Both the position numbers and the translations under genes were made by a program. Positions 55,579-63,247 of a stretch of DNA of 64,000 nt are shown here, piece after piece (the first letter of the stretch is position 1; each line of letters opens with the position of its first letter). The notes beneath the pieces were generated by a model that was not told the origin of the DNA, did not search any database, and was given only the letters and a program-made list of their open reading frames with translations. Source of the DNA: Paraspadella gotoi (lineage: Eukaryota > Animalia > Chaetognatha); NCBI GenBank assembly GCA_051294375.1, contig CM119269.1, positions 11,816,809-11,880,808 on the forward strand, in the 5' to 3' direction.

Positions 55579-63247
<7,669 letters not shown>

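Follow-up and report, generated by a model that had tools for sequence, protein, structure and literature searches.

Introduction

Twister ribozymes of type P5 (RF02684) end in P5 and, in the available part of the review PMC5408937, are described with P2, P4, an optional P3, T1 and T2, in addition to the GA and UAA of L1 and the core of L4. Their Rfam consensus and their phage examples have a hairpin P1. The same part of that review states that twisters without P1 cleave at almost the wild-type rate, and the accessible portion of PMC11662667 reports that, in natural type-P1 twisters, cleavage is unaffected by the length or the defects of P1. An absent or imperfect P1, together with a retroelement link, is also found in the mini-twister without P1 and in the T-variants of Perere-3 from Schistosoma, which, in the sections of PMC5408937 and PMC8501958 at hand, are of type P1, open-ended at P1, and act singly. 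Penelope-like elements and amphibian retrozymes carry minimal type I hammerheads in a tandem or two-copy layout; the helix adjoining the cut site is there reduced to a short palindrome, and hammerheads with such a palindromic stem III act as dimers (PMC6765202 and PMC7229834, available portions). Finally, the LTR retrozymes of plants (PMC4918200, available portion) are small elements of ~700 nt per unit, with LTRs, a primer binding site (PBS), a polypurine tract, a 4-bp target site duplication (TSD), one type III hammerhead per LTR, and a circular RNA. In the full-text literature, represented by the accessible parts of its papers and by few subscription journals, we found no report of a twister with a palindromic P1 or acting as a dimer, nor of twisters in LTRs; the sole mention of a twister dimer that we found, in the available part of PMC5408937, concerns a crystal artefact.

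The window studied here, which is the whole 64,000-nt stretch of Paraspadella gotoi DNA that was analysed, contains three twister-bearing repeat families, named A, B and C, the last of which was absent from the first-pass annotation. These families share the type-P5 elements listed above but bear a 6-nt palindromic linker, a 3-bp bulged P2 and a score below the Rfam cut-off; because of this score and the lack of a hairpin P1, they are not filed under Rfam Twister-P5. Unlike in the mini-twister and the Perere-3 variants, the ends of P1 are here joined by a symmetric hexamer. The likeness to the minimal hammerheads is one of working principle, since the catalytic folds are unrelated and our families have no hammerhead core; moreover, stem III is needed in those hammerheads whereas the P1 of twisters is reported to be dispensable, and dimer action is demonstrated there and predicted here. 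Families A and B resemble the plant LTR retrozymes in their smallness, LTRs, PBS, polypurine tract, 4-bp TSD and the presence of a ribozyme per LTR, but they are hosted by an animal, carry a twister fold instead of a type III hammerhead, have a unit of 410-430 nt and a tRNA-like head in the LTR, and their circular RNA is putative. We regard the palindrome-P1 twister as a variant of the twister, probably dimer-assisted, that would run parallel to the dimeric minimal hammerheads.

A palindromic linker in a family B element

The first element of family B (element 1) and the twister of its 3' LTR consist of the following features:

62082..62732 (+), family B element 1, 651 bp, with the 4-bp TSD GTAT
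62082-62315 and 62499-62732 (+), LTRs of element 1
62317 (+), start of the PBS-like sequence, TGG
62485-62496 (+), polypurine tract
62189..62264 (+), decayed twister of the 5' LTR
62606..62681 (+), type-P5 twister fold with intact core in the 3' LTR, 76 nt
62606-11/62676-81 (+), P5
62615-18/62633-35 (+), bulged P2
62619-20 (+), GA
62621-23/62663-65 (+), T1
62624..62629 (+), self-complementary P1 linker GGCGCU, predicted to form a 6-bp P1 between two molecules, with a G-U pair at either end
62636-37/62668-69 (+), T2
62638-56 (+), P3
62657-61/62670-74 (+), P4

The order along 62606-62681 is P5', P2', GA, T1', linker, UAA, P2, T2, P3, P4, L4, P4' and P5 which, as read from the sequence, is the type-P5 permutation of the twister fold. 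Positions 62621-62632 correspond to CGG (T1'), GGCGCT (62624-62629) and TAA, which bears out the palindrome that the first-pass annotation had placed between T1' and UAA, as well as its longer form GCGCGCT, present at 58775-58781. From the twister consensus, the cut is predicted between U62630 and A62631, and the two predicted cut sites of the element are 417 nt apart. The 5' LTR twister has the linker GATGCT (62207-62212), two G-U pairs in T1 and a mismatch in P2. The single long frame of the element, which spans 119 aa between stops, gave no match in Pfam, and the integrated LTRs of the family start with TA, not TG.

Families A, B and C in the window

A search model built from the window copies and one metagenome locus (L067, see below), run without filters, listed 18 matches in the window: the 11 strong ones are the twister copies considered here, the other seven reach at most 12 bits, and no further twister family was found in the window by this search. 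Outside element 1, the copies belong to the following features:

58673..59336 (-), family B element 2, TSD AGAG, cut-site spacing 431 nt
59154-59229 (-), twister of element 2, linker GGCGCT
58724-58799 (-), twister of element 2, linker GCGCGCT at 58775-58781
34028..34313 (-), family A solo LTR, TG..CA, TSD TCTC
34099-34180 (-), intact-core twister of this solo LTR, linker CGGCCG at 34157-34162
26897..29619 (-), family A full element, TSD AGCT, interrupted by the insert 27038-29214
61789..62072 (+), family A solo LTR, TSD TATT, with a decayed twister at 61921-62002
30017..30077 (+), family C twister, linker AGGCCT at 30035-30040, weak Rfam Twister-P5 match
7139..7522 (-), family C tandem pair, both with AGGCCT, 323 nt apart
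5035..5095 (-), family C twister, linker AGGCCT at 5072-5077, outer P2 pair mismatched

Family B, very abundant and uniform in the contigs, has four twister copies in two elements, with the linkers GGCGCT (twice), GCGCGCT and GATGCT. The LTR of family A is 286 bp long and bounded by TG..CA. The window contains it as two solo copies and in one full element; leaving out the insert, the unit of the latter measures ~410 nt. The 5' LTR twister of this element (29405-29486) is without the catalytic G, and that of the 3' LTR is gone. As for the linker CGGCCG, assigned to family A by the first-pass annotation, the contigs agree, with C in 91-95% of the depth at 61939 (three runs), but the perfect word is present in only one of the three window copies and the other two read TGGCCG. 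In family B, G makes up 90% of the contig depth at 62208, and the deviant linkers of the window copies are minority forms. Family C is a non-LTR unit with four copies, one tandem pair among them, and the linker AGGCCT in 4/4; within the pair, the copy at 7139-7199 is intact and that at 7462-7522 has one mismatch in P4. In full elements or tandem units, the two twister copies lie ~320-430 nt apart.

Families A and B have the features of LTR retrozymes, namely LTRs, PBS, polypurine tract, 4-bp TSD and no coding capacity. They are not plant-type LTR retrozymes because they have no type III hammerhead, which characterizes the latter in the available parts of PMC4918200 and bioRxiv 10.64898/2026.07.22.740005; the LTRs of A and B contain no hammerhead core, and the hammerheads of the window lie elsewhere, among other features:

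9395 (+), 36109 (+), 51611 (-), 31005 (-), 15275 (-) and 10597 (-), minimal hammerhead cores of the Penelope type
47095-47727 (+), noggin gene, by domain match
11453-14154 (-), LINE-type endonuclease and reverse transcriptase inside a dehydrogenase gene
18869-19441 (-), SHIPPO-repeat exon

These hammerheads, none of them reported by Rfam, have the palindromic stem III ACATGT in 4/6 cases and a one-base variant of it in 2/6. A frame at 34879-35301 (+), which has no Pfam match and looks by eye like the end of a Penelope GIY-YIG endonuclease, lies between inverted repeats containing a hammerhead. The noggin domain and a Cys-loop channel domain mark the host as an animal.

The PBS-like sequences at 62317-62329 (+, family B) and 29323-29332 (-, family A) have their first ten bases in common. 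Since these starts match though the LTRs are otherwise unlike, they suggest one primer tRNA for both families, and perhaps one autonomous partner. The 2.2-kb insert at 27038-29214 bears terminal inverted repeats of 11 bp, is accompanied by a duplication of 8 bp, and interrupts the family A element at its polypurine tract.

Twisters outside the window

Metagenome contigs were scanned using a pattern in which any linker of 4-9 nt was allowed, a locus being accepted with T1 3/3, P4 of at least 3 and T2. Among the at least 117 loci listed, one had the complete fold; the model search of this set covered 100 of the 117 listed loci. The two loci discussed below are:

386-446 (-) of a 1.1-kb metagenome contig, L067 twister, P5 of 5 bp, linker CAATTG (CAAUUG)
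391-460 (-), L066, borderline, with a P4 mismatch and no P5

The flanks of L067 gave no Pfam match in the frame tested. L066, a possible bulged-P2 twister, can be read either with a plain 3-4-bp hairpin P1 or with a non-palindromic 7-nt linker. Another locus, L082, has a palindromic hexamer, but with its P4 of 2 it was treated as a chance match. With the bulged-P2 pattern, 0/35 loci passed in viral scans, and none did among the at least 120 matches listed for prokaryote genomes; two more viral scans (61 and 33 loci) contained no complete fold with a short linker, their best locus being re-parsed as a 6-bp hairpin P1. The phage type-P5 twisters retrieved with canonical patterns have an ordinary hairpin P1.

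A second set of folds comes from the Naiad elements of bivalves. In the portion of the supplement of PMC8557442 available, the same permuted fold can be recognized by eye in the tails of 5/9 of them, from clams and mussels: Mgal, Bpla, Mphi, Scon and Mmer, three of these names being inferred from file order. All five, which are related to one another, have a perfect palindrome of 6-12 nt starting one or two bases after T1' (TAGCTAGCTA, GGCGCC, TGATGCATCA, GGAGCGCTCC and GGTGCGCACC), with its inner four bases self-complementary in 5/5, and a second palindrome of 8-9 nt ahead of the cut site. The remaining 4/9 tails have no such fold in the portion seen. Three oyster and ark-clam tails within that portion share a different motif, in which a perfect palindrome of 10 nt occupies the corresponding position ahead of a conserved stretch; inspected by eye, this motif does not read as a twister. 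Craig et al. (2021), in the part of PMC8557442 at hand, report no canonical hammerhead in Naiads and do not mention the twister. The first-pass annotation had tied the palindrome to LTRs, a reading that is abandoned here: family C shows none of the features of an LTR, nor do Naiads belong to the LTR elements.

Covariation and membership of the twister class

The fold was evaluated over 12 rows, the 11 window copies plus L067, which are related to one another, so that the figures are descriptive. Pairing holds in 97% of cells; T1 and T2 are paired in 100% of cells, with both-sided changes in 2/3 pairs of T1 and 1/2 pairs of T2, and P2 and P4 are paired in 94% and 96% of cells, respectively, also with double changes. 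The covariation score was reached by 0/500 shuffles, and controls slid along the rows were at most 53% paired. P5 was read per family and left out of this count because its registers differ between families. P2 consists of three pairs plus a bulged base in all four families, counting L067 as one, and the identity of this base is not fixed in family A, with C at 67% and A at 18%. The L1 (GA, NAA) and L4 core bases are kept, and are lost in two decayed family A copies.

Against the Rfam gathering threshold of 37.6 bits for RF02684, family C reaches 25.6-25.8, L067 24.2 and family A 14.9 (a partial match), family B has no match to this model, and thus no window family matches at gathering level. 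ViennaRNA predicted no hairpin P1 in any linker tested. Such low scores, together with the 3-bp bulged P2, the missing hairpin and the sense copies tolerated in introns, are what one would expect if the fold no longer cut in cells, either as monomer or as dimer, and served as a structural RNA module or depended on a protein. We give this explanation little credence, since the catalytic G, A+1, the L4 core, T1 and T2 are retained across families with compensatory changes, and family B is present in the contigs in great number and with little variation.

Symmetry of the linker

Over the same 12 rows and four families, the linker cells are paired in 97% of cases (pairs 1-6, 2-5 and 3-4), and each of the three pairs changes on both sides; the central one is GC, CG, GC and AU in the four families. 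Because neighbouring bases are unable to pair with one another within a single hairpin, the central pair is left unexplained by a hairpin. Given that even this pair, which no hairpin needs, covaries, selection for RNA-RNA self-pairing of the linker is likely. A role of the palindrome at the DNA level is rejected, because the letters change freely while the symmetry stays. Within a family, no covariation was seen at the listed places, 62628-62656, a range that begins after 62624-62627; over these few sites, variation is 14-37% in the P3 loop versus at most 2% at 62628.

The linker could also be a monomeric mini-P1 of one or two pairs plus a loop, with full symmetry due to chance or shared descent. 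Any hairpin would indeed be expected to have the outer pairs, the word GGCC is common to A and C, one genome supplied three of the families, and L066, despite its P4 mismatch and missing P5, is compatible with a comparable fold having either an ordinary hairpin P1 or a linker that is not palindromic. However, the inner two pairs are Watson-Crick in 4/4 hexamer families (1.5e-5 to 1.8e-4 if independent), a sample of four families, three of them from one genome. For C and L067, which the first-pass annotation had not seen, the probability of two perfect hexamers is P = 2e-4 to 1.5e-3, and P = 0.004-0.013 when the outer pair is attributed to a hairpin and the inner two pairs alone are counted; these P values treat the families as independent, which A and C, sharing GGCC, may not be. 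By comparison, 1/41 distinct 6-nt linkers is self-complementary among the listed pattern matches that failed the structure test, and the inner four bases of the Naiad palindromes behave as described above in the portion of the supplement seen. A mini-P1 is, on these grounds, very improbable, and we hold with high confidence that the symmetry of the linker is selected. The palindrome occupies the site at which an intermolecular P1 would form, with different letters in the four families with 6-nt linkers and, in the available supplement, in five Naiad families, which extends the initial observation.

Monomer or dimer

In the folding models used here, the P1 of these twisters would be formable as a helix only between two copies, though one pair plus a tetraloop, made of the six linker bases, could conceivably close a monomer; forcing this 1-bp hairpin costs +4.1 to +6.0 kcal/mol (ViennaRNA). 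The linker self-duplex amounts to -8.3, -10.7, -9.1 and -3.0 kcal/mol in B, A, C and L067, respectively (ViennaRNA), and the swapped dimer is favoured over two monomers by -11.7, -16.3, -13.1 and -6.8 kcal/mol in the same order, as computed by nearest-neighbour rules with nested helices only, in folding models that omit both pseudoknots. The weak duplex of L067 speaks against a dimer.

The first-pass annotation had proposed that a P1 too short for a hairpin implies dimer dependence, with the twisters of two LTRs swapping strands into a shared P1. No linker hairpin is predicted, but the premise is weak and the conclusion does not follow, because P1 is reported to be dispensable in the accessible parts of PMC5408937 and PMC11662667 and the six linker bases could close a monomer; the 3-bp bulged P2 may, for its part, raise the need for P1. 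The shared P1 itself receives a divided answer: the nested dimer is favoured in family B, but two real two-LTR transcripts folded without constraints have 0.0 expected inter-linker pairs in a pseudoknot-free model. Two B copies cofold at the minimum through P3 and P5, not through the linker. At the very element where the partnership of two LTRs was proposed, the 5' LTR twister is decayed, and the modelled heterodimer with it reaches -3.2.

These results leave room for a monomer that cleaves well by itself, with the palindrome as a selected self-pairing handle by which RNAs would pair for packaging, template switching or ligation. Retroviral dimer initiation sites offer the analogy of kissing loops. 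The dispensability of P1 in reported twisters would fit such a handle, and so would the minimum-energy fold of the B monomer, which leaves most of the hexamer inside an 8-nt loop; a covarying symmetry demonstrates pairing, not catalysis, and the palindrome of Naiads stands in a longer linker, possibly as the tip of a hairpin. Nevertheless, the word lies exactly at P1, adjoining the cut site, where a packaging signal need not be, and it keeps this position in elements mobilised in different ways, namely those with LTRs, the tandem unit without LTRs and the Penelope-like Naiads. We therefore treat the handle as a serious minority view, and dimer-assisted cleavage, in which the hexamer would pair with that of a second copy into a two-fold symmetric dimer predicted to cut faster, as the reading we favour by a modest degree. 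Assistance rather than strict dependence on the dimer is what we would expect.

Transcription and intronic copies

The LTRs of families A and B contain, upstream of the twister, sequences resembling the head of a tRNA:

62532..62604 (+), tRNA-like head with a B-box-like word, just upstream of the family B twister, ARAGORN relaxed score
62115-62187 (+), tRNA-like head upstream of the 5' LTR twister of family B, relaxed score

In family A, a tRNA-like head or B-box word is observed at LTR positions ~70-120, directly upstream of the twister. At its default score, ARAGORN found 0 tRNA genes. These sequences suggest candidate internal Pol III promoters in A and B and, since they lie upstream of the fold, solo LTRs may be transcribed alone. 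The B elements lack T4 runs, but this is no evidence for Pol III, because 662 and 493 of 2000 shuffles lack them as well.

Element 1 and the family A solo LTR at 61789-62072 lie in sense orientation in an intron of a channel gene (Cys-loop), with its GT at 61766, its AG at 62850-62851, and a frame that continues across; the two flanking exons have no Pfam match when taken alone. Of the three twisters in this intron, that of the 3' B copy is intact, and those of the A copy and the 5' B copy have decayed; as a single case, this pattern fits the idea of the first-pass annotation that intronic solo LTRs stay silent. The idea is otherwise without support, and the family C tandem pair at 7139-7522 does not fit it: the pair is near-intact and sense-oriented within an intron of a gene for a short-chain dehydrogenase, a situation in which cutting is predicted by the model. 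Such near-intact sense copies in host introns also count against the dimer reading.

A proposed model for dimer-assisted cleavage

Under the dimer-assisted reading, the RNA polymerase would transcribe through two copies, perhaps from the tRNA-like internal promoter in A and B, and the hexamers of both copies would form a shared 6-bp P1. In the simplest case, a swap of the 5' arm, consisting of P5', P2', the catalytic G and T1', would then build each active site from two copies; alternatively, the geometry may be that of a kissing dimer without swap. After the two cuts, the freed RNA would be of unit length, would already contain the two halves of a core and would have its ends in proximity, which would favour ligation; the resulting circle would hold a single, poorly active monomer copy. 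The second palindrome of Naiads is not explained by a simple swap.

A stricter version, an obligate strand-swapped dimer in which only two-copy precursors cut and solo copies stay silent, would in addition protect the one-copy circle against re-cutting. In view of the points above, this version seems to us possible but doubtful. Were it true, two ribozyme classes with no relation to each other would have arrived at one design, and this design would be used by LTR elements of animals, by tandem units and by the Naiads, which were thought to be without a ribozyme.

If dimer-assisted cleavage is true, the twister would have converged on the copy-counting trick of the minimal hammerheads and become a second ribozyme class whose quaternary structure times cleavage in the life cycle of retroelements. 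This would explain why P1 may be conserved in nature though dispensable in vitro, as well as why Rfam misses such ribozymes in animal repeats, and it would offer a system of ~75 nt for separating swap, kissing and monomer. Families A and B of P. gotoi would then represent a twister-bearing animal counterpart to the LTR retrozymes of plants.
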